Assembly (NCBI GenBank): GCA_964016885.1
Contig: OZ024740.1
Coordinates: 63,736,001-63,800,000, forward strand
Direction of reading: 5' to 3'
DNA length: 64,000 nucleotides
Origin: Eledone cirrhosa
Taxonomy: Eukaryota
In this document: positions 2,322 through 62,088 of the stretch, one piece after another
Layout of the letters: every line of letters begins with the position of its first letter
Position numbering within the stretch: the first letter of the stretch is position 1
Notes under the pieces: generated by a model
What the model was told of the DNA's origin: nothing
Databases searched by the model: none
What the model saw: the letters and a program-made list of their open reading frames with translations, nothing else
Made by a program: the position numbers and the translations under genes

Positions 2322-5300
2322 TCAGCATGTACCCATGGGAGGTCGGGTACCCTGTATTACTGCGTGACGCCAGAAGTCACGGTCGTGTGTCATTGTCTTT
2401 GAGAGGTGTAGTTGGGTAAGGTCGGCTTTTATCACCTCATCCCAAGTCATCTTGGGTCTCCCCACTCCGCAGTTTCCATCAACTTCTAGTGCTCTGCACC
2501 TTTTTATGCAGCTGTCATCCTTCATACGCATCACATGTCCATACCAGCGTAACCGCCTCTCCTGCACGCAGCATTTGATTCCTCTTATGCTCAGTCTCTC
2601 TCTCAATTCTTTTATGCTTTGTCGTTCACGTATATTACTGTTACACATCCATCGGAGCATGCAGGCTTCGTTTCTCTCTAATCTACGTAAGTCTTCCACC
2701 TTCAGCGCCCAGGTCTCACTACCATGCAACATCGCTGTTCGGATACACGCATCATACAGTCTGCCTTTCATTCTGAGGGAGAAGCCTTTTGCAGCTAGCA
2801 GTGGTAGTAGTTCCCTAAACTTCTTCCATCCCGTTCTTACCCTAGTTATTGTACTTTCTGAGCACCCACCTCCGTTGCTAATTCGGTCACCTAGGTAGCA
2901 GAAGCTGTCTACTGTTTCTACAGGGCCCTCCCAGAGATTGGTGGTACTTGTTTCCTGTGGCTGTTTGCTTGCTGTTTCAGCACAGCTGCTGCATGTGAAT
3001 CCTACATTCTTAATTAAGCTTCCTGAGATCCCGCTACATCTCTTGTGTACCCATTGTTTGCATTTGGGGCAGAGAATGGAGTTCCTACCTACACCTTTCC
3101 TACATACTGAGCAAGGCCATTTCCCTGAGGGGATCTGGGTTCTGTTTTCTCGTCTACTTACAAGGACCTTAGTCTTTGTCATGTTGACTTTGAGGCCCTT
3201 TCTCTCTAGTCCCTGCTTCCAGGTTTGGAATTTATTCTCTAGTTCTACCATAGATTCAGCTATGAGTGCGAGGTCATCAGCATACAGGAGTTCCCATGGG
3301 CATCCGGTCTTAAACTCCTCCGTTATTGCCTGCAGGACTATGATGAACAGGAGCGGGCTAAGAACAGAGCCCTGGTGGACCCCAACCTGTACGCTAAATT
3401 CCTCGCTATACTCATTGCTAATCCTAACTTTGCTGACTGCTCCCCTATACATGGCTTGTACCGCTTTCACAAACCATTCATCTACTCCTAGTTTTCTAAG
3501 AGCCCACCAGATTACCGCACGTGGAACTCTGTCAAAGGCTTTCTCAAGGTCGACAAATGCCAAGTAGAGTGGCTTACTTTTAGCTAGGTACTTTTCCTGT
3601 AATTGCCTCACAAGGAAGAGGGCATCAGTGGTGCCTCTCCCTGGTACAAACCCAAATTGCATCTCGTCTATATTCACCCGGTCCCTAATCAGCTGTGCTA
3701 TAACTCTTTCTGTTACTTTCATGACCTGGTCCATCAACTTTATACCTCTATAGTTTCCTCTATCTAGTGCATCGCCTTTACCTTTGTAGCAGTTGACAAT
3801 GATGCTACTGCACCAATCTTTTGGTATGGCCCCTTCTAGTATTACCTGGTTAACGATACGTGTGGTTATAGTGTGACCTACAGAACCAGATGCCTTCAGC
3901 ATCTCGGCAGCTATACCCGATGGACCGGTTGCCTTCCCCATCTTCATATCTCTGATTGCCTTACTTACTACGCTGCCGCTGACTTGTACTGCTGGTCCCT
4001 CTATAGGGTCTACATGGGGTAGGGTCTCTTCTTCCCATGCATTCTCCTCATTTAGTAATCTATCATAATGACTCTTCCATGCATCTTTCTTCTCAGCACT
4101 TGTGAGGGCAAGCTCACCTTTATCATTCCGGATACACTTCTCTCCAATGACATCACAACTATCTCTGACACACTGCCTCGCAATCTTGAATACCTCCTGT
4201 TTCTGGTCCTCACGTTGTAAAACATGCTTGAATTTTCTATCCTCTGCTTCCCTCCTAGCTAAGTATACTTGTCGCCTAGCTTCCCTCTTGGTCTCTATGT
4301 AATGTACCCTGCTCCCCCCGTTCTTCCATTCTTTCCATGCTTGTCTTTTGGCCTTGACTGCTTCATCTACCTTATTGTTCCACCACCAAGTCACTCTCCT
4401 CCTGCTTGAGGTCTTACTCCAGCCACAAACCTCATCCGTCGCCTCTAGTAAGTTATTTTTTAGGAACTCCCAGTTCTCTTCTACGTTAAATGTCTCTATC
4501 TGTTCTTCTTTACTGTCGTAGGCGTTGAGTAAAATATCTTTAAATCTGTTACTGGTTGAGGGGACTTTCAGCTTCCAGATCTTTCTTCTCCAGGTTGGCC
4601 TCTGTTTCCGGGTTCGTCTAGTTCTAACCGTGAGGTCGCTGACAACTAAGCTATGTTGGGATGTACATTCCTCACTAGGGAAGGCTTTTGTGTTTACGAC
4701 CGTCCATCTGTCACGTCCTCTGATGAGGATAAAATCTAACTGACTAGAGTGCTCCCCTGATCTATAGGTGATCAGGTGGTTGTCGGGTTTTTTAAAGTTT
4801 GTGTTACATATCGACATGTCATTGGCGTCGCAGAATTCTAGAAGTCTGAATCCTTCCTCATTCCTTGTGCCAACTCCATGGCCTCCATGTACTCTATTGA
4901 AGCCGTCGCAGTGTTTACCTACGTGTCCGTTAAAATCTCCTGCAATGATTAGGAAGTCCTTGTCGTCTGTTAGAGCAGTAGTGTGTATTAGGGACTCGTA
5001 AAACCTATCCTTAAGTTCGTCTGGCAGCCCCGATTGGGGTGCGTAAGCTGATATTATTGTGGTAATTGTCTTATTCAGGACTAGTCTGAGTTTAATGATT
5101 CTTGCATTTACCCTGTACACTGAGATTACTTTATCTACCCACTTGTCAGCTAATAGTATACCTACACCACCCATCCCATCGTCATTTCCCACCCAGAAAA
5201 ATTTGTAGCACTGGCTTTTTCCTACAAGGACTCTAGCAGACCCTCCTCTCCATCTAGTCTCTTGCACACAGCATACATCAACTTCCTTTCGCTCTAGCAT

Positions 5301-5441
5301 TTCTACGATTTCGCCTGCTTTTCCTTTCATTGAGCCTACATTGATGGTACCAACTCGGAGTTTTGGGCATTTGTCGACACTCGTAGGGGAGGGTCTCTGG
5401 GTTGGCGCTTCACGTGGGTGCTTGGTAGCTCGCAGATTCAT
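2322..5441 (-). CDS. RTE polyprotein: APE endonuclease, reverse transcriptase and PHD-type zinc finger (1039 aa)
   Basis: EN motifs GTINVG, VQETRW, GDFNGHVG, DFIL, SQH; RT motifs FVDLEKAFD, QGSVLSP, YADD; C-x2-C..C-x2-C..H-x2-C..C-x2-C at ~2982-3119; RRLRWYGHV..GRPK C-terminus; no stops or frameshifts. Confidence 0.95.
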   Translation of the reverse strand: MNLRATKHPREAPTQRPSPTSVDKCPKLRVGTINVGSMKGKAGEIVEMLERKEVDVCCVQETRWRGGSARVLVGKSQCYKFFWVGNDDGMGGVGILLADKWVDKVISVYRVNARIIKLRLVLNKTITTIISAYAPQSGLPDELKDRFYESLIHTTALTDDKDFLIIAGDFNGHVGKHCDGFNRVHGGHGVGTRNEEGFRLLEFCDANDMSICNTNFKKPDNHLITYRSGEHSSQLDFILIRGRDRWTVVNTKAFPSEECTSQHSLVVSDLTVRTRRTRKQRPTWRRKIWKLKVPSTSNRFKDILLNAYDSKEEQIETFNVEENWEFLKNNLLEATDEVCGWSKTSSRRRVTWWWNNKVDEAVKAKRQAWKEWKNGGSRVHYIETKREARRQVYLARREAEDRKFKHVLQREDQKQEVFKIARQCVRDSCDVIGEKCIRNDKGELALTSAEKKDAWKSHYDRLLNEENAWEEETLPHVDPIEGPAVQVSGSVVSKAIRDMKMGKATGPSGIAAEMLKASGSVGHTITTRIVNQVILEGAIPKDWCSSIIVNCYKGKGDALDRGNYRGIKLMDQVMKVTERVIAQLIRDRVNIDEMQFGFVPGRGTTDALFLVRQLQEKYLAKSKPLYLAFVDLEKAFDRVPRAVIWWALRKLGVDEWFVKAVQAMYRGAVSKVRISNEYSEEFSVQVGVHQGSVLSPLLFIIVLQAITEEFKTGCPWELLYADDLALIAESMVELENKFQTWKQGLERKGLKVNMTKTKVLVSRRENRTQIPSGKWPCSVCRKGVGRNSILCPKCKQWVHKRCSGISGSLIKNVGFTCSSCAETASKQPQETSTTNLWEGPVETVDSFCYLGDRISNGGGCSESTITRVRTGWKKFRELLPLLAAKGFSLRMKGRLYDACIRTAMLHGSETWALKVEDLRRLERNEACMLRWMCNSNIRERQSIKELRERLSIRGIKCCVQERRLRWYGHVMRMKDDSCIKRCRALEVDGNCGVGRPKMTWDEVIKADLTQLHLSKTMTHDRDFWRHAVIQGTRPPMGTC

Positions 5442-5670
5442 ATTTCATCTATTGATTCAGAGTTGCTCAAATGTATTCTCAGCTCATCCATCCATAACGG
5501 TGGGAAAATTGAGGGCTAGAGGAACAGTGGTGGTGGGGTAATGGCAGGGTGTGTTGGGATGCGCCAGAGGAGGAGAGAGTTAGTTAGGCAGCTAGTAGCA
5601 GCAGCAGTGGAAATGGCATGCTAGGTCGAATAGACTATGGTGTGTGTGGGGGTGGGGGGAACTTGTGAGG

Positions 5671-11391: not shown

Positions 11392-14300
11392 ATGAAGATG
11401 TCGCATCTCAGAGTTGCCACACTTAATGTGGTAGATCTGGTGAGATAGTGGAGATGCTGGAGAGAAGGCATGTGGATGTGTGCAAGAGGTGAGATGGAGA
11501 GGTGCCTTTGCAAGACTAATCGCAGGCAAACATCTTAGTTACAAGCTTTTCTGGGTGGGTAATGATAGGTTAGGTGGGGTAGGCATTTTACTGGCTGAAA
11601 GATGGATCGATAAGACAATAGAGGTAGTTAGAGTTAGTAACAGAATAATTAAGCTTAGATTAGTTGTAGGCAAGAGACTGCTGACAATCATCTCTGCCTA
11701 TGCTCCTCAGGCAGGCCTAGGTAAAAAAAAAGAAAGACTGCTTTTACGAGCAACTTTTAGAAACAGCCACAATGACAGAGGACAGAGACATCATTATGCT
11801 AGCAGGGGACTTCAATGGTTATGTTGGACAGCTCCCCGATGGATACACTGGGGTACATGGTGGGTACGGTTATGGCTCAAGAAATGAAGAAGGAGTGAGG
11901 CTTCTTGAATTTTGTGATGCAAGTGTACTAACCATTTGCAACACTAACTTCAAGAAACCTACCAACCACCTAATAACCTACAAATCAGGCGAGCACATAA
12001 GCCAGATTGACTTCTTGCTAATTAGGTAGCGAGACAGACAGATGGTGTCAAATACTAAGGCATACCCCAGGGAAGAATGTACCCCACAGCATAGGTTAGT
12101 TGTTAGTGACATTGCAGTAAGCAAGAGACAAAATGAGACATACAGGAAGGTGTGGAAAAGAAAGGTCTGGTAGCTAAAAGACCTTTCACTAAAATATAAA
12201 TTTAGGAAAGCCCTTCAAGAGTGTATGACGAAAAAGATGATTTAGAGTCGTATGACATAGATGATAACTGGAATTTCTTACGTGACAACTTACTGCAGGC
12301 TACTGAAGAAACTTGTGGTTGAGGCAGAGCTCCAACCAGACAGAGAATGACCTGGTGATGGAACAGCACGGTAGATTGGGCCATTAGAGACAAAAGACTA
12401 GCATGGAACGCTTGGAAAAATGGGAGTAAAGACAGATACACAGCCGCTAAGAGAGAAGCTATATGTCAGGTGTACTTAGCACGCAGGGAGGCTGAGAGTA
12501 GGAGGCTTGCCAATGTTCTGCGACGGGATGATCAGAGACGTGCGGTGTTCCGCATTGCAAGGCAGTGTGTCAGTGTAAATCAGGATGTTGTTGGAGATAA
12601 GTGTCCGGAATGATGCTGGTGTACTTAGTGTCATGAATGATCAGAAAAAGGAGGCCTGGAAATGTCATTATGAGAGACTGATGAATGTGGAGAACGAATG
12701 GGAGATAGAGAAATTACTCCTAGTAGACCCGACAGAGGGACCAGCTATTGAGATAGATGAATATAGGGTCCAAGAGGCAATTAAGGAAATGAAAAATGAT
12801 AAGGCCGCTGGATTGTCGGCGATAGTTGCTGAGATGATGAAGGCTTCAGAAGAAGTAGGCACTAAACAGGTTGCACGCATCATCAATCAAGCTATATATG
12901 GCGGTGTCATACCCAAAGACTGGTGCAGCAGTATTCTCATAAATTGCTACAAAGGTAAAGAGGATGCTCTGGAGAGGAGCAATTATAGGGGCATAAAGCT
13001 GATGGATCAGGTTATGAAAGTGGCAGGGAGAATATTAGCGCAACTAATTAGAGAAAGGGTCAAATTAGATGAGATGCAGTTTGGTTTTGTGCCTGGGAAA
13101 AGTACAACAGATGCCCTCTTCTTAGTGAGACAACTACAAGAGAGGTTCTTAGAGAAGAATAAGCCACTATACTTAGCTTTTGTTAACCTAGAGAAGGCCT
13201 TTGATAGGTACCCCGATCTGTCATCTGGTGGTCCCTAAGGAAACTAGGTGTTGAGGAATGGCTTGTGAGGACAGTGCAAGCTATGTACAGAGGTGCTGTC
13301 AGTAAAGTGAGAGTAGGAATGGAGTTTAGTGAGGAATTCCAGATACAAGTAGGAGTACATCAGGGTTTGGTCCTCAGCCCACTCTTGTTCATTATAGTCC
13401 TCTAAGCCATAACAGAGGAGTTTAAGACTGGCTGCCCATGGGAACTTCTCTATGCTGATGATCTAGTTCTTATAGCAGAATTAGTAGAGGAGCTAGAGAA
13501 TAAATTGTGGCTATGGAAACAGCAGTTGGAATCAAGAGGAATGTGAGAGAACATAGCTAAGACAAAAGTGTTGATAAGTAGAAAAGAAGACAAAACTCTG
13601 ATTCCATCAGGGAAATGGCCATGTTCGATATGTAGCAAAGGAACTGGCATAAATTCTATAAAATGTACACAATGCAGATCTTGGGTACACAATAAATGTA
13701 GTGGGATAGCAGAAAAATTAACAGGTAGGGAAAACTACGTATGCAGTAGATATACAGGGAAGTTTGACAGTAGTAATCACAGTGATAGACACATTTTTCA
13801 AATGCAGGTGGGTTCTATAGAAGTGGTTGATAGCTTCCGGTACCTGGGTGATCAGATGAGCAGGAGAGGAAGGTGTTCCAAGGCCATAGTATCTAGAATA
13901 AGGACGGGTTGGAAGAAGTTTAGGAAGCTGCTTCCTCTGTTGACAAAGAAGGGTTTCTCCCTGCGTACAAAAGGCCGGTTATATGATGCCTGTGTGAGAT
14001 GTACGATGCTGCATGGTAGTGAGACATGGGCAGCAACTACAGAGGATATGCGATGGCTGGAGAGAAATGAAGCAAGCACGATCTGTTGGATGCAATGTCA
14101 ATGTACATGAATGACCAAGCATAGATGAGTTGAGAGAGAAACTGTGTGTAAGAAGGATAAATTGTGGTGTGCGGGAGAGAAGACTGAGATGGTATGGACA
14201 TGTGATGTGCATGGAGGATGACTGCTGGGTAAAGAAGTGCCAAGAAATGCCAGTAGAAGGAAGACGCAGTAAAGGAAGACCATGAAAATCATGGCCGGAG

Positions 14301-14440
14301 GTGATGTGAGCAGACCTCAGATCGCTGAAGCTCACGGAGGAGATGATGGACTGACAAGTGGAGAGATGCTGTGCTGAATAGGACTTGTCCCACCCTTGCA
14401 AGCAGGGAAAAGCAGACGTAAAATGATGATGATGATGATG
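11392..14440 (+). mobile_element. Near full-ORF decayed RTE LINE, antisense to U2AF2
   Basis: EN (LRVATLNV, GDFNG), RT (YADD at ~13451) and PHD remnants with many stops and frameshifts; (TGA)n tail at 14423-14440. Confidence 0.93.
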
Positions 14441-15099
14441 AAATGCTTATTAATATTAGTTAATACAATAAGACCTTATGTCTATGTTAGAAACCAATAT
14501 CAGTTAATATTAACTACCATCACTGAAACATGTAAAAAAAGTACTCTTGGGTCCCAAATAGGCAGGGAGGATAAGCAGGGAGTTGGAATAAGCAGGGAAT
14601 GGTTGGAAAATCAGTAATTTTTTTAGGTTATCTCCATTGATTTTTTTTAAAACCAGAATTAGTCATTTAGTTTATGTATTGAGACCCCCAACCCATCCTA
14701 CTTTATAACGTATGGGATTTCTGTCATGTTTAATGTTTTTTTAATGTATAAAGAAAATTCATTGTCACAGGAATGCTACCACTTATAGATTAGCAAAATT
14801 TAATAAGTGGGAGAAAGGGGGGTGGGCATTATTTGAGACCTGCGAGAAGTGTTAATATTAGTTAACTATGAGTGAAATGTTAGTGGTGGAAGGGGAGACA
14901 ATGCTGTCTATTATCCCACCCCAACAAAAAGGAAAAAAAACTATGACCTTGAGGTGATGGTCACAAACCAATATTAGTCAATATTATTTTCAGTAAGTTT
15001 GTGCCAGATATTTCATAGTTAAACTATAGAAACACTGATATCAATTTATAAAAATTATACAATTATTGTGTAATATATAGTTTGTATAACTTTTCAGAC

Positions 15100-17883
15100 T
15101 GGAAAATAAAAAACGTGACAATCACCTGATCACCTATAGATCGGGGGAACACACAAGCCAGGTAGATTATATCCTTACCAGAAGACGTGACAGAGTGTCG
15201 GTTGTAAACACTAAATCCCTCCCCCATGAAGAATGCACCTCCCAACATAGACTGATAATTAACGACCTAATAGTCAGGACGAGACGTATTAGACAACAGA
15301 AGAGGACTATCCTCAGGAGAAAAATATGGAAGTTAAAGGACCCCACAGCCGGAAATAAATTTAAAAGCATACTACTTGATGCTTTCGACAGTAAGGAAGA
15401 GCAATTAGAGTCGTACAATATAGAGGAGCAGTGGGAATTCCTGAAAGCAAACCTGCTGATGGCGGCAGACGAAGTCTGTGGCTGGAGCAGGCCTGTAGGC
15501 AGGAGGAGAGTAACATGGTGGTGGAACAGTAAGGTGGATGGGGGAAGTAGAGAAGACTATCAAGTGGCCAGGAGGGAAGCTAGGAGACAAGTGTACTTCG
15601 CAAGAAGGGAAGCAGAGGAAAGAAAGTTCAAGCATGTTCTATAACGCGAGGACCAAAAACGTGAGGTGTTCAGGATTGCTAGGCAATGTGTCAAGGAAAA
15701 CCGTGATATTGTCGGGGAGAAGTGTGTACTTAATGATGACAGCGTACTTGCCATCACCGACGCTGATAAGAAGGTAGCTTGGAAGTGTCACTATGAAAGG
15801 CTACTAAATGAGGAGAATAAATGGGAGAAAGACAGTCTCCCCCACATCGACCCAATAGAGGGACCAGCAGTGTTAGTCGAGGATAGTATAATAAGTAAGG
15901 CAATCAAAGATATGAAGACGGGTAAGGCGGCAGGGCCTTTGGAAATAGTTGCCGAGATGCTGAAGGCATCTGGTACGGTGGGACACACCATGGTCACCCG
16001 GATAGTTAACCAAGTCGTACAGATGGGGTTGTTCCGAAGGACTGGCGTAGCAGCATCATCGTCAACTGTTATAAGGGTAAAGGAGATGCCCTAGATAGGA
16101 GTAACTATAGAGGCATTAAATTAATCGACCAGGTCATGAAGGTCACGGAAAAAGTAATAGCGCAACTAATCAGAGAGCGAATTGATCTAGATGAAATGCA
16201 GTTCGGGTTTGTGTCAGGCAAAAGTACCACAGACGCTCTTTTCATTGTACGACAACTACAGGAGAAGTACCTAGCTAAAAGTAAACCCCTATACTTAGCT
16301 TTTGTCGACTTGGAGAAAGCCTTCGACAGAGTCCCCCGTTCCATTATCTGGTGGGCTCTTAGAAAACTAGGTGTTGACGAATGGCTTGTGAGAGCTATAC
16401 AAGCCATGTATAAAGAAACAGTCAGCAAGGTTAGAATTAACAACGAATATAGTGAAGAGTTTAGCGTAAAAGTTGGCGTCCATCAGGGCTCTGTTCTCAG
16501 GCTATAACAGAGGAGTTCAAGACCGGCTGCCCATGGGAACTCCTATACGCAGATGACCTAACACTCATAGCTGAATCAATGGCCGAGCTAGAGAAGAAAT
16601 TCCAAACATGGAAGCACGCCCTAGAATCAAAAGGCCTTAAAATTAACCTGGCTAAGACTAAAGTTCTAGTTTGTAAGAAAGAAAATAAGGCGGCGGTCCC
16701 TTCCGGGAAGTGGCCATGCTCAGTGTGTAGAAAAGGAGTAGGTAGAAACTCCATTTTATGTCCCAAATGCAAAGTATGGGTGCATAAAAGATGTAGTGTG
16801 ATCACAGGTAAGCTAACTAAGAACATAGATTTTATATATGGCCGGTGCTCTGGTGCAATAAGTAGCAGCAAGTGCCCACAAAATACTAGCTCATTCCATT
16901 GCACAGATGGTTCTATAGAAATAGTGGACACCTTCCGTTACCTGGGTGACAAAATCAGCAGTGGGGGAGGGTGCTCTGAAAGTACAGTAGCTAGAGTCAG
17001 AACTGGATGGAAAAAGTTCAGAGAGCTTAAACCACTATTAGCCGCTAAAGGGTTCTCCCTAAAAATGAAAGACAGGTTGTATGATGCCTGCATACGAACA
17101 GCAATGTTGCATGGCAGTGAGACCTGGGCATTGTGTGCAGAGGATATACGCAGACTAGAGAGGAACGAAGCTTGCATGCTCCGCTGGATGTGTAATAGTA
17201 ATATACGTGAACGGCAAAGCATAAACGAACTAAGGAAAAAATTAGAAATAAGAGGGATCAGATGTTGTTTACTCGAGAGAAGGCTACGTTGGTATGGTCA
17301 CGTGATGCGCATGAAAGACGATAGCTGTATAACAAAGTGCAGGGCAATAAAGATAGACGGTAGCCACGGAATAGGCAGACCCAGAAAAACCTGGGACGAG
17401 CTGATAAATTCCGACCTCACACACTTACACCTCTCCAAGACAATGTCACTGGACCGAGACCTTTGGCGGTACTCAGTAATAGAGAAGACCCGCCTTACCT
17501 AAATACAAAGTAAAACCTACTACAGTCAGTAGGCATCTCTAACAAAATACACCCCCGTCCCACCACCCCCACCCTATCCACACCGCCCCTTTCAATGTAA
17601 AGTTATGTTGGTGCCACAACATCCAGGCCGAAACAAATGAGATCGTGTAGGTGTCACGACAAAAAAACACACAGTCCACGCTGTAATGTGGCCGTGTAGG
17701 CAACACGGTAAAAACCTCCCAGCCCCACACTGTAAATGTGGTTGGTGTTAGGAAGGGCATCCAGCTGTAGAAAACCCGCCAGACAGTCCTATGCGAGCAA
17801 GACAATCACTCTTGCCTCAAGTGGGAAAACCCCCGTCCAAACCCATGCAAGCGTGGAACACGGACGTTAAACGTTTATGATGA
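15100..17883 (+). mobile_element. 5'-truncated RTE LINE, third subfamily
   Basis: ORFs 15195..15644, 15666..16094, 16136..16507 and 16579..17502; RT, PHD and 3' UTR (same UTR as 50323-50740). Confidence 0.93.
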
Positions 17884-44416: not shown

Positions 44417-44599
<183 letters not shown>

Positions 44600-52105: not shown

Positions 52106-54034
52106 TATATACACAGATATATACATATACATATATATATACACATACATATAACATTCAATTAATGAAAGTTGGTTGATAATATAATCCGCCAACTTTT
52201 TTTGTAAACAGACGTAAAGCACTCTACAATATTTATTCCTTAGAATGTCATGGATAAGATATCAACTGGAGTTTCAATATTATGAAGAAGGGAGATGGTT
52301 TATGTACACATAAAACCGTCTCTCTTCTTCATAAAACCAAGTTATCTTGAATATCGACTTTGAAATGTGAGTGTATTAGAATTCGTAAGATAATGGGAAA
52401 ACTCAGCACAAGGAAGCTGTTAAAACAGCAAAATGCCGTCAATGATGGCGTTGGGTACAATTTACCTCAGTGGCTAGAAGTGTGTTGGCTAAGAGAAGTG
52501 ATAGGAAGAAAAGAAAAAAGGAATAAAATGGAGAATAGATCACACAAACATTTAAATACACTCATCAGCTGTTAGATCGCCTGTGGTTTCAACGATTTAA
52601 CTAACAGTACCGCGTAAGTTAGATGGCTCGTAACAACAGAGAAATAAATATCTCTGTTGGTATAATGTTTGTGTTAGGAACAAAAATAGATTAGATAGAC
52701 AGACAGAAAGGTCTTTTCCACATACAGAGCCATTGTTTTCACCTTTCTTATGATGACCTGAGGCCGTGTAGATGCACTTTATTTTACTTTCTCTCTCTCT
52801 GTCTATCTAATATGCTGATAAACTATCATAGCTGAACCTATCAAAGAATTTTAAAAGCAGTCTAGAATCGAGAGGCAGCTAAATATATCTGGTAAAGAAA
52901 AGATTTTAATTAAGAAGAAAAACGGTCTTGCTTGATGTGAAGAAATAGTTTGTAACTGCTCTCTCTCTCTCTATATATATATATATAGACACACACAAAT
53001 ACATGCATACTTTCGGACACACATATTTCCGGGTGATATAGGGATGGATGGAATTTGGGTAAAAGTAATGCTCATATCTGATAGTTGAACATGGAAAAAA
53101 CATTTCTTAAATGTTCACACAAATTTCACAAATACAGGGAGAAACATAGAAAGTATTTGAAGGGTATGGAAACTAAAAGAGAGAGAAGTAATCACTCCCA
53201 ATTCCATGCATAGTGACCTCAGCAGCTTATAGTCCAATAATACCAAAAGATAAGGTGAAGAAATCACAGCTATAAGATTTCAAAGAGATAACTCAAGAAC
53301 AGTCAAAACTAGTAGAATTGTTTGAGAGATTGCAATAACAAAGTCTAAGAAATCTCTCTAAACAGGATTTTTTTCCAAAATAAACTTGAAAAGAAACTGA
53401 GCAGATGGTTTCAGTGAGCAATCTGAAATGAAAGTAAGAGTATCCTGGCACCTGAAAGTAGTATCAAGCATCACAATGAAGCTGTAATATAAGGCATCCG
53501 CCATTCATTCCAGCTGCTCTCATTCATTCGTATGGTATACTCACAACGCCCACAACAATGTCCTTGACCAACACTATAATTACGGCCCTTCCACTCAAGC
53601 TTGAAACTGACCACTTGCCTGTGTCTTGGATGAGCACATTAACAAGGTTTTGTGGTTTGGTCAGTTTACCGACAATATGAAATTCAGCAGTAGATTTTCA
53701 ACCTCTTCCCCTAAGCTAGGGACAAAAGGGGTAAGAAACAAGAAAAGAATAATGAGTTGATGTATCAAAAACATACATATAACATGACGCAATTAACTTA
53801 ATAAAGAAGCTTTTTTTGTTTTGTTTTGCTTTTTTTTTAACTTTAGAACTACAATATCTGAAATAGATTTATCAGCATTACCATAGTACAGATGTTTTGT
53901 TAGTTAAATACTAAATATAATTATTATTTCACTACACTAATTCTCACTTTTTGTTTGTATTTTTTTTTTATTTACAGATTGGAACTTTTTAATAATCACG
54001 TAATAATTTTTAAAAAAGATTTAGAGAGAGTTTC

Positions 54035-54126
54035 CTGTAAAAAGAAAGCTGAAATGGAATTGGGGAGAAATGCTGAAAGAGAATGAAGTCTGAAACAGAG
54101 AGCTTGCCATCTGAAATAGGAGAGAC
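54035..54126 (-). promoter_or_regulatory. Five back-to-back 3' splice-site-like units (pyrimidine tract plus TTTCAG/TTACAG)
   Basis: Minus strand: gtctctcctatttcag|atggcaagctctctgtttcag|acttcattctctttcag|catttctccccaattccatttcag|ctttctttttacag. Function is inferred. Confidence 0.6.
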
Positions 54127-56079
54127 TTGGCAAATTTTCTACCAAATCAGCAATGACAAATTTTCTACCAAATCAGCAATTTTCTTCTCAATCTGCATTT
54201 AAAAATATAATGCTTAATCTAAGATAAATTTAATGTAGGTACAATGACAGTTTTTAAGCCTCACGGAGCAAAAGGAACACAAGTAAAAATATTCTGTTAT
54301 TCTCTTCATACACAGAAAAAACCAGAGATTACCTTCACGTTTTTTTTAATGAATATTTAGCTTTTCATTAGAAAATAAATACTCTTATCCTTCCATATAT
54401 AAAAAGAACTTAAAGCAAACTGTTATCTATGTCAAACACAAACCAGAACTTGACTGAAATTACAATAATTAGATCCTACATAGTACTAGCTTTAGGCTTT
54501 AACAAAAGCAAAATACAAAATAATCCGACATATTGTTAATAAATGATTGAATAATGGAAATTTATTCCATATTGTTTTCAATACCACCAAAGTGTATATA
54601 TTAAATATAATTATAATTATTCAAATAGTTATGTTGTGTGTATCCAGGTTTTTAGAATAGGTACACTATCCCTGTGTGTTGAGAGGTGACTAAAAAGAAG
54701 AGCATCCGACTGTAAAATATTGTCTCAAACGATCTCATCCAAACCCATGCTAGCATGGAAAAATGTATGTAAAAGTGATGATGATCATGATTATAGTCAT
54801 TTAATTTATATTTTATTACGATTTGTGTGGAGGTCAGCAGAAGACAAGGTACTTAAAAACAGAGACTCAAATGGAAGTGGAAGTAATAAAATAATCTCCC
54901 CTGGTATGACCATTACTATTTCAAGATTGCAAAGCAATAAATCTTCAATAGAAATCAAGGAAACAATACCAGAAATTTCATGTTAAAGATATGTAACTAT
55001 AGGTTAACACAATATCAATACATATCTGCAGTCATCACCATTATTCTCTTCTTCCCATTTTTATCCTCATAACAATCTCTCACTGACAGAAACTACTTAA
55101 TTACCACCACTGCCAAAGTGCATCTTCATTTTTTGGGGATTTTACTAAACCTATAGCTTATCTCTTATTGTCTAATACACCACACCATTTCCTTTTTATG
55201 GCTGTTTGGAGAGTCTCTGAAATTTGTGAGGAGCAGGGCCAAAGTAACTATGACTTATGGGTTATCCTCAGACCTAGTCCAAATGCATACAGCACAATGG
55301 ACTCCACTAACGAAGAGCAGAAAATAAAAACTTATAGTGTAAAGGGAATTCCTTAGTTCAACCTCACAGAAACACTATAATGCTGATGGCAAGATAAAAA
55401 ACACCAAACCGTAAAAAATATATACACAACAAAATTTTCCCTGCTGTTGTGTATGCCAGATAATCAAAGGCTGCGACAAATGGTGAGATGCTGTGAAGCC
55501 TGTACACACCATGACAGTAATGACAATGATGAAATACATCTCTCTCTCTATGGGTGCGTGTGTGTATGTATCATCATCATCATCCTCATCATCACCATTT
55601 AACAACTATTTTTCTAAGTTGCATGGGTTAGACGGGTTGTCATGTTGAGACAATATTGGTGATTCACGTCTTGCTCATACAAATCTGTATTTTGGCTTGG
55701 TTTCTACAGATGGATGCCCTTCCTAATGCCAACCAAGTAGTGAACTGGGTGTTTTTTTGTTTTTTTTACTGTGGCAGCAAAACAACCATCTAACAGAATG
55801 AACTGGGCACTTTTTATATATATATATATACACGTATATATAAATATATATATGTGTGTGTGTATGTATATGTGTGCGTGTGTGTATATATAAAAGGTAA
55901 ACAAAACAAAACAAACGGTACAGTACATGGAAGAAATATATTAGTTTAACGCTTGAAATAGCAGGAAGAACGTTTCGGACACTAGTCCTTCACCAGAAGA
56001 TAGATAGAAAGTAAAGAGTGATGAGAGGAAGGAATGGGGAAAATGAGAAAAAAATTGTGTGTATATATAGATATATCAC

Positions 56080-61369: not shown

Positions 61370-62088
<719 letters not shown>

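Follow-up and report, generated by a model that had tools for sequence, protein, structure and literature searches.

The U2AF65 locus and its conserved intronic island

The window analysed here is a 64,000-nt stretch of the Eledone cirrhosa genome (GCA_964016885.1, contig OZ024740.1, positions 63,736,001 to 63,800,000 of the forward strand), and all coordinates below are positions in it. It contains most of a U2AF65 (U2AF2) gene on the minus strand. A 17,417-nt phase-0 intron near the start of RRM2 separates the exons at 62075-61996 and 44578-44456 and harbors a conserved island. An earlier reading of this sequence (the original prediction) had proposed that an array of U2AF binding sites in the island acts as an autoregulatory sensor; it missed a 97-nt poison exon that the island is predicted to hold at 53715-53619. 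This exon is likely part of a very old feedback brake on U2AF65 levels.

The exon at 44578-44456 matched PDB U2AF65 chains at E ~6e-20 and the Pfam RRM_1 family, and a protein tree placed the gene among lophotrochozoans, with molluscs, with moderate support. A genome search with the island returned two matches, the window itself and a site 12 Mb away on the same chromosome; the search skips common words, so that two matches do not prove rarity. With that limit, the island does not behave as a multi-copy repeat, which the original prediction had named as a ground for rejecting it. The second match lies in the corresponding intron of a second full U2AF65 gene (the paralog; G000:C1:51840733-51878511, L007-L010). 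The paralog is intact, with 11 collinear exons, an RS-domain exon and an open frame over 10 joined exons. The two copies differ at 40 of 387 residues and at 50 of 149 four-fold sites (34%). An uncollapsed haplotype was ruled out because the introns are unalignable and the proteins differ to this extent. Exon identity between the copies is very uneven (70-99%) and some splice-site flanks are common to both, which suggests patchy gene conversion. The features of the locus, compared with the paralog and with sequencing runs (X11, X18) and a metagenome transcript (L093) from other organisms, are as follows.

61996-62075, minus strand: upstream coding exon of U2AF65 (start of RRM2), ending in phase 0; 84% identity to the paralog exon
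61980-61995, minus strand: 5' end of the host intron, donor and U-rich run; first 16 nt the same in both gene copies
53157-54153, minus strand: conserved intronic island; 92% identity to the paralog over 1020 columns, covered by X18 in two pieces
54131-54180, no strand: 26-bp tandem duplication at the upstream edge of the island; second unit specific to the window copy
54030-54153, minus strand: upstream array of five pyrimidine-AG units (G at 54111, 54090, 54073, 54049, 54035); 2 substitutions in 124 nt relative to the paralog
53711-53795, minus strand: acceptor region with a 79-nt AG-free zone, a C-rich tract and tandem AGs at 53716 (likely used) and 53711; first of the two AGs used in transcript L093, same motif in other animals
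53619-53715, minus strand: predicted poison exon, 97 nt, reading LRGRG then stop; 3' junction in run X11
53613-53621, minus strand: GC 5' splice site CAG/GCAAGT, donor position 53618; break point of an X11 contig
53539-53547, minus strand: possible second donor (GT), 74 nt 3' of the GC donor, within a stretch identical to X18
53400-53618, minus strand: downstream conserved block with three further pyrimidine-AG units (53482, 53452, 53423); 1 substitution in 219 nt relative to the paralog
44456-44578, minus strand: downstream coding exon of RRM2; PDB U2AF65 chains and Pfam RRM_1

Apart from the exons and the island, alignment of the two gene copies gave only three short low-identity hits, and the island is the sole unique alignable non-exonic block longer than 80 nt. 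Its core, made up of the array, the acceptor tract, the exon and the block after the donor, shows 6 differences from the paralog in 514 sites, compared with 50 of 149 at four-fold sites. Between X18 and the paralog, 5 of 512 core sites differ versus 40 of 334 linker and tail sites (p = 2e-12). Nucleotide conservation of the core exceeds that of neutral and synonymous sites in the paralog and X18 comparisons, and the most conserved block in the window lies 3' of the donor (1 change in 219 nt).

Anatomy and splicing of the predicted exon

The sixth codon of the predicted exon is a stop. It lies 79 nt from the 3' end of the exon, more than the 50 nt by which a premature stop should precede a later junction; the exon length of 97 nt also shifts the frame. 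All eight candidate acceptors upstream of the GC donor lead to an in-frame stop, 65-402 nt before the donor junction. Several splice sites are adjacent in the island (the tandem acceptor, two arrays, the GC donor and the possible GT donor), with the five-AG array 320-400 nt 5' of the exon and the downstream units 135-195 nt 3' of it. The exon itself contains no TT(T/A)CAG, and no use of the GT donor at 53539-53547 was seen.

Four sequencing runs (X5, X11, X14 and X18), which had been selected for containing the stretch and whose RNA status is a guess, were mapped on the island, and two were informative. The run search listed no run recorded as RNA that contains the stretch, a result without bearing on expression. 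A 54-nt contig of X11 follows the window to 53619 and breaks at CAG/GCAAGT; its 24 remaining letters match the next coding exon of the paralog at 23 of 24 positions, the next best place having 8 mismatches. Two other X11 pieces of 40-44 nt (7-8 mismatches) and the two pieces obtained from X14 were treated as chance. The contigs of X18 pass unspliced through the array, the acceptor and the donor.

In transcript L093, 68 nt are inserted at the matching exon boundary; this insert is the exon, included with both junctions. The first 20 nt of the insert match the window exon (from 53715) at 19 positions, with the identical stop at codon 6. Therefore, 53716 is likely the true acceptor of a 97-nt exon, and not the splice-site mimic for which the original prediction took it. 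In two other loci (L084 and L136), the exon is joined to the downstream exon. The cassette is spliced into its host mRNA at both ends in orthologues (L093), and we infer the same for the window copy.

The AGs proposed earlier as acceptor-like are all present on the minus (pre-mRNA) strand, comprising those of the two arrays listed above and those at 53858, 53716 and 53173 (counted at the G); all five of the upstream array are kept in X18. TT(T/A)CAG occurs five times within 82 nt, a density reached in none of 80 background 10-kb strands (maximum 3), none of 5000 shuffles of the island and none of 20000 shuffles of the array itself, and nine times in the island compared with a shuffle mean of 0.9, the motif having been picked only after the sequence had been viewed. 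A motif-free test with a position weight matrix (PWM) from 20 acceptors of the two gene copies retained the enrichment in milder form. Four of the five array units score among the highest 5% of background AGs, the fifth (54090) reaching the 75th percentile, and clusters of at least four in 80 nt are present in 9 of the 80 background strands. Top-5% sites in the island number 10 on the sense and 2 on the antisense strand, with 2.7 expected (Poisson p = 0.0005); a looser count of YYNYAG gave p = 0.028.

The 26-bp tandem duplication noted in the original prediction exists, but it is not conserved, being single in both the paralog and X18. The upstream flank in X18 matches the paralog at 28 of 30 letters; therefore, the duplication is specific to the window copy, and it was rejected as part of the element.

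Other motifs were observed within and around the gene. At 53447-53458, an acceptor is directly followed by GT (TTTCAG/GT), the form of a recursive splice site, with a weak donor half that differs in the paralog. Two GAATGAATG repeats at 53505-53527, within the most conserved post-donor block, resemble a TDP-43 site. The next intron is mostly filled by a 22.6-kb satellite (21769-44361) of 732 copies of a 31-bp unit, each containing TTTCAG, but on the antisense strand of the gene. LINE-like (long interspersed nuclear element) reverse-transcriptase frames are found in the 3' introns (2325-5444 on the minus strand, and 11444-17499), one with 1040 codons without a stop.

Distribution of the cassette across animals

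A scan of metagenome contigs yielded 171 confirmed U2AF65 loci, of which 80 were kept. Loci without a gap at the boundary (42), without the upstream exon (13), with a transcript insert (one, L093) and duplicates (6, five near-identical to their partner and L120 only similar to L116) were set aside, leaving 18 complete, non-duplicate introns from other animals. The cassette was defined as a C-led tandem acceptor plus AG/GCAAGT, the donor part being derived from the X11 junction. Acceptor and GC donor, 39-131 nt apart, were found in 13 of the 18, which places the cassette in the corresponding intron of these animals. The same rule gave no match on the antisense strand of the 18 introns, none in 320 kb of antisense from all 80 loci, and one in 800 kb of own-genome background. 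The sequence AGGCAAGT was found in 14 of the 18 introns and never on the antisense strand. Despite the variation in length, all 13 cassettes introduce a stop or a frameshift, which points to selection on the translated product.

Placement relied on named proteins in an anchored protein tree (32 of 232 returned proteins plus 19 metagenome loci); L089, L099, L128, L137 and L100 were placed by best hit only, and 13 loci were too short for the first tree. Cassette carriers group with, or best match, stony corals (L117, L135), a scyphozoan (L137, 81/81 residues), arthropods (L079, L112, L124, L103, L126, L128, L130, L136) and lophotrochozoans including molluscs (L084, L088, L089, L093, L101). Additionally, the partial locus L100, whose best match is a ray-finned fish, contains an 87-nt version of the exon with a stop; its upstream exon is off the contig.

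The introns without the full cassette are those of L082 (tetrapod-like), L123 (a 62-nt mite intron), L108 (donor motif only), L095 (aphid) and L116. In the last two, a C-rich acceptor without donor (L095:3192-3264, L116:561-619) lies 73 and 59 nt before the normal acceptor and would shift the frame if used; the cassette may here have turned into a poison alternative 3' splice site. A cluster of three TTTCAG was also observed in L095. Among loci without an intron at the boundary, L060, L062, L064, L067, L081 and L090 are long contigs, and the intron may have been lost in these lineages together with the module.

The strand bias of the arrays extends to other animals. Near the cassette, TT(T/A)CAG occurs 66 times on the sense and 12 times on the antisense strand in 12 loci (L135, close to L117, was left out), compared with 26 and 23 in the downstream control. 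In both copies of the window genome and in L079, L088, L089 and L101, the motif is densest in a cluster that begins 386-421 nt upstream of the acceptor; in the corals and L124 this distance is 805-878 nt. In the arthropod group L103, L126, L128 and L130, a donor-like GT(A/T)TGT follows the tandem AG, 5 nt into the exon, and motif clusters lie downstream.

Proposed autoregulation, alternative explanations and implications

U2AF65 binds pyrimidine tracts and U2AF35 binds the AG. Tracts rich in U are bound more strongly than those rich in C, and GC donors, which are weak, occur preferentially at alternative exons. With a C-rich acceptor and a GC donor, the exon would therefore be recognized only when U2AF is plentiful. 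We consider it probable, judging from sequence, that the conserved poison exon lets U2AF65 limit its own level. Abundant U2AF would occupy the C-rich acceptor at 53716, assisted by the neighboring pyrimidine-AG arrays, and the exon would then be defined across the weak GC donor. Inclusion would stop translation five residues into RRM2 and direct the mRNA to nonsense-mediated decay (NMD), while scarce U2AF would lead to skipping and full-length protein. The role of the arrays may be to increase U2AF occupancy locally or to hold up the upstream donor, and transcripts that keep the upstream half-intron would be a second outcome compatible with this model. The sensor interpretation of the original prediction is sustained insofar as the island, which is located in the RRM2 intron of the U2AF65 gene itself, shows conservation, arrays biased to the sense strand and a link to unproductive splicing. 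However, its conserved core is a cassette exon (53716 acceptor, GC donor 53618) and the arrays vary between lineages; sensing of U2AF concentration by the array is a role we infer.

Several observations weigh against this autoregulatory model. By the motif-free score, the array cluster is only moderately unusual and the 53716 acceptor is at the 95th percentile. The RNA junctions into array AGs that the original prediction proposed as a check were not seen in the run contigs and metagenome transcripts examined, nor was any junction of the window gene copy itself in the run contigs. The X11 junction is seen in one contig, which is of the paralog type and derives from another organism, and X11 is only guessed to be an RNA run; the evidence from close-relative runs covers the 3' side only. 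X5 gave no piece, X14 gave two 31-nt pieces with 4 mismatches, and unspliced forms are common. Across animals, the acceptor half of the rule behind the 13 of 18 count was derived from these same loci. The full cassette is missing from 5 of the 18 introns, and in 42 of the 80 loci the boundary carries neither an intron nor an insert; most of the 42 resemble spliced transcripts, and some appear to be intronless long contigs. L103, L126, L128 and L130 (three of these four have motifs downstream instead), L112, L137 and the available 300 nt of L100 have a weak upstream array or none at all. The arrays are therefore a frequent strand-specific companion, and the splice sites of the exon are the constant part. 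Finally, gene conversion may contribute to the identity with the paralog: two of the coding exons reach 97-99% identity, and the tails of the two copies are nearer to each other (13 differences in 211) than to X18 (19 and 27). The comparison with X18, from another organism, is independent of gene conversion.

An alternative compatible with the poison exon, although unlikely to be the principal outcome, is a decoy exon or detained intron, in which the many acceptors would pair with the upstream donor but splicing would stall, so that transcripts would mostly stay in the nucleus with the upstream half-intron and inclusion of the exon would be the minor route. In L084 and L136, intron sequence precedes the exon that is joined downstream, and the X18 contigs are unspliced over array, acceptor and donor. 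Moreover, 21 of 24 listed runs contain 0.30-0.31 of the words of the island, where the X18 pieces predict 0.35 and the exon alone 0.02; intronic flanks are therefore present in these runs. Multiple splice sites and U2AF binding are features of decoy exons (10.1101/2020.01.13.902544), and an intron-retained isoform of uaf-1, the Caenorhabditis elegans U2AF65 gene, rises ~9-fold on fasting (PMC10755965). On the other side, L093 shows full inclusion, and each of the 13 cassettes retains a stop or a frameshift. The runs were also pre-selected for the stretch, with guessed RNA status, and the unspliced contigs may represent nascent RNA or DNA.

It is less likely still that a real poison exon is switched by another factor or cue (e.g. 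PUF60, RBM39, a neuronal regulator, temperature or nutrition), with the arrays accessory or binding a partner other than U2AF. The arrays do shift position and are absent upstream in several cassette-bearing loci, and the most conserved block, downstream of the donor, has no assigned partner. Against this, the arrays end like the gene's own acceptors, are sense-biased (66:12) and have their densest cluster at the same 386-421 nt in both copies and four other loci.

We regard as very improbable that the exon yields a short functional protein, consisting of the RS domain, RRM1 and a five-residue tail, instead of a decay substrate. A peptide xRxRG followed by a stop is shared by eight sequences (window, L084, L088, L089, L093, L101, L112, L124); among these, the arginine at position 4 is encoded in four different ways, and each of the three stop codons occurs at position 6. 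However, the peptide is not kept in the corals, the jellyfish, L079 or the L103 group, the stop lies 79 nt before the exon junction with more junctions downstream, and the first two codons double as the tandem acceptor. A protein search with the 41-residue coral-type exon gave no match at E 1e-20. High conservation by itself would also fit a non-coding RNA gene within the intron, an exon of a different gene or a repeat, but these are largely excluded by the five Rfam matches all falling short of threshold (best E 0.39), core folding (53400-53720) no better than shuffles (z 0.03), a plus-strand 66-codon frame without Pfam match, two genomic matches only, and junctions that connect the island to U2AF65 exons.

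By analogy, the proposed autoregulatory poison exon would work like known cases of alternative splicing coupled to NMD (AS-NMD). Zorio et al. reportedly described in 1997 an alternative exon of uaf-1, close to where RRM2 begins, that contains a stop and numerous 3' splice-site matches. The repeats of uaf-1 reportedly lie within that exon, whereas in the window the arrays flank a short exon; the 97-nt exon would share this feature only if an array AG served as acceptor. Among the 23 anchored loci, none was identified as nematode.

According to Ma and Horvitz, uaf-1b comprises a part of RRM2 together with the UHM, which is consistent with the region of the window element (PMC2762039). Human U2AF2 has a conserved poison cassette exon described as autoregulatory AS-NMD (PMC8091538, PMC6547761), and thus shares with the window the same gene and a conserved stop-containing cassette (PMC8091538). 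The human exon probably lies in another intron (RRM1) than the RRM2 intron of the window. A junction in the human supplement ends at an exon starting GAGGC, like the RRM1 exon of the paralog, which starts GAAGCC (PMC8091538). The cassette is absent from L082, the one intron at the RRM2 position that is tetrapod-like.

Decoy exons of SF3B1, OGT and SNRNP70, described from fish to mammals (10.1101/2020.01.13.902544), resemble the window element in that a conserved cryptic exon with several adjacent splice sites is located far inside a long intron of a gene for RNA processing. Unlike them, the cassette is fully included in L093, and retention activity of the window element is only putative. RBM39, a protein resembling U2AF65, is likewise held in check by a conserved poison exon of its own pre-mRNA (PMC10477243, PMC6547761), but it is a different gene, and its conservation is cited from human to Xenopus as opposed to cnidarian to bilaterian here. 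Term searches of PMC3771449, PMC11346455, PMC13247117, PMC12709185, PMC12385487 and PMC2265522 returned nothing on the element in the text covered. In the literature searched, no description of the cross-phylum cassette was found for molluscs, cnidarians, arthropods or fish; genome-wide supplementary tables might list the exon, and subscription papers were largely outside the search. The cassette architecture and its spread from cnidarians to bilaterians appear to be undescribed so far.

To our knowledge, non-coding splice elements recognizable between cnidarians and bilaterians, over more than 550 million years, are rare, and this one sits in the very factor that defines 3' splice sites. Tentatively, and with less confidence than in autoregulation itself, a single feedback module may have been inherited from the cnidarian-bilaterian ancestor, with a decoy acceptor array, a C-rich tandem acceptor and a GC donor gauging free U2AF. 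The uaf-1 exon would be its nematode form, aphids would have a poison alternative acceptor, a fish gene copy would retain the module, and tetrapods would have substituted a poison exon in another intron. If the proposed mechanism is true, the observation in worms and the human poison exon would reflect one long-standing need for U2AF65 homeostasis, served by different exons. The element would provide a compact system for asking how a concentration threshold arises from acceptor arrays, a C-rich tract and a GC donor, and its natural variants, with and without arrays and with and without the donor, would serve as controls for that question.

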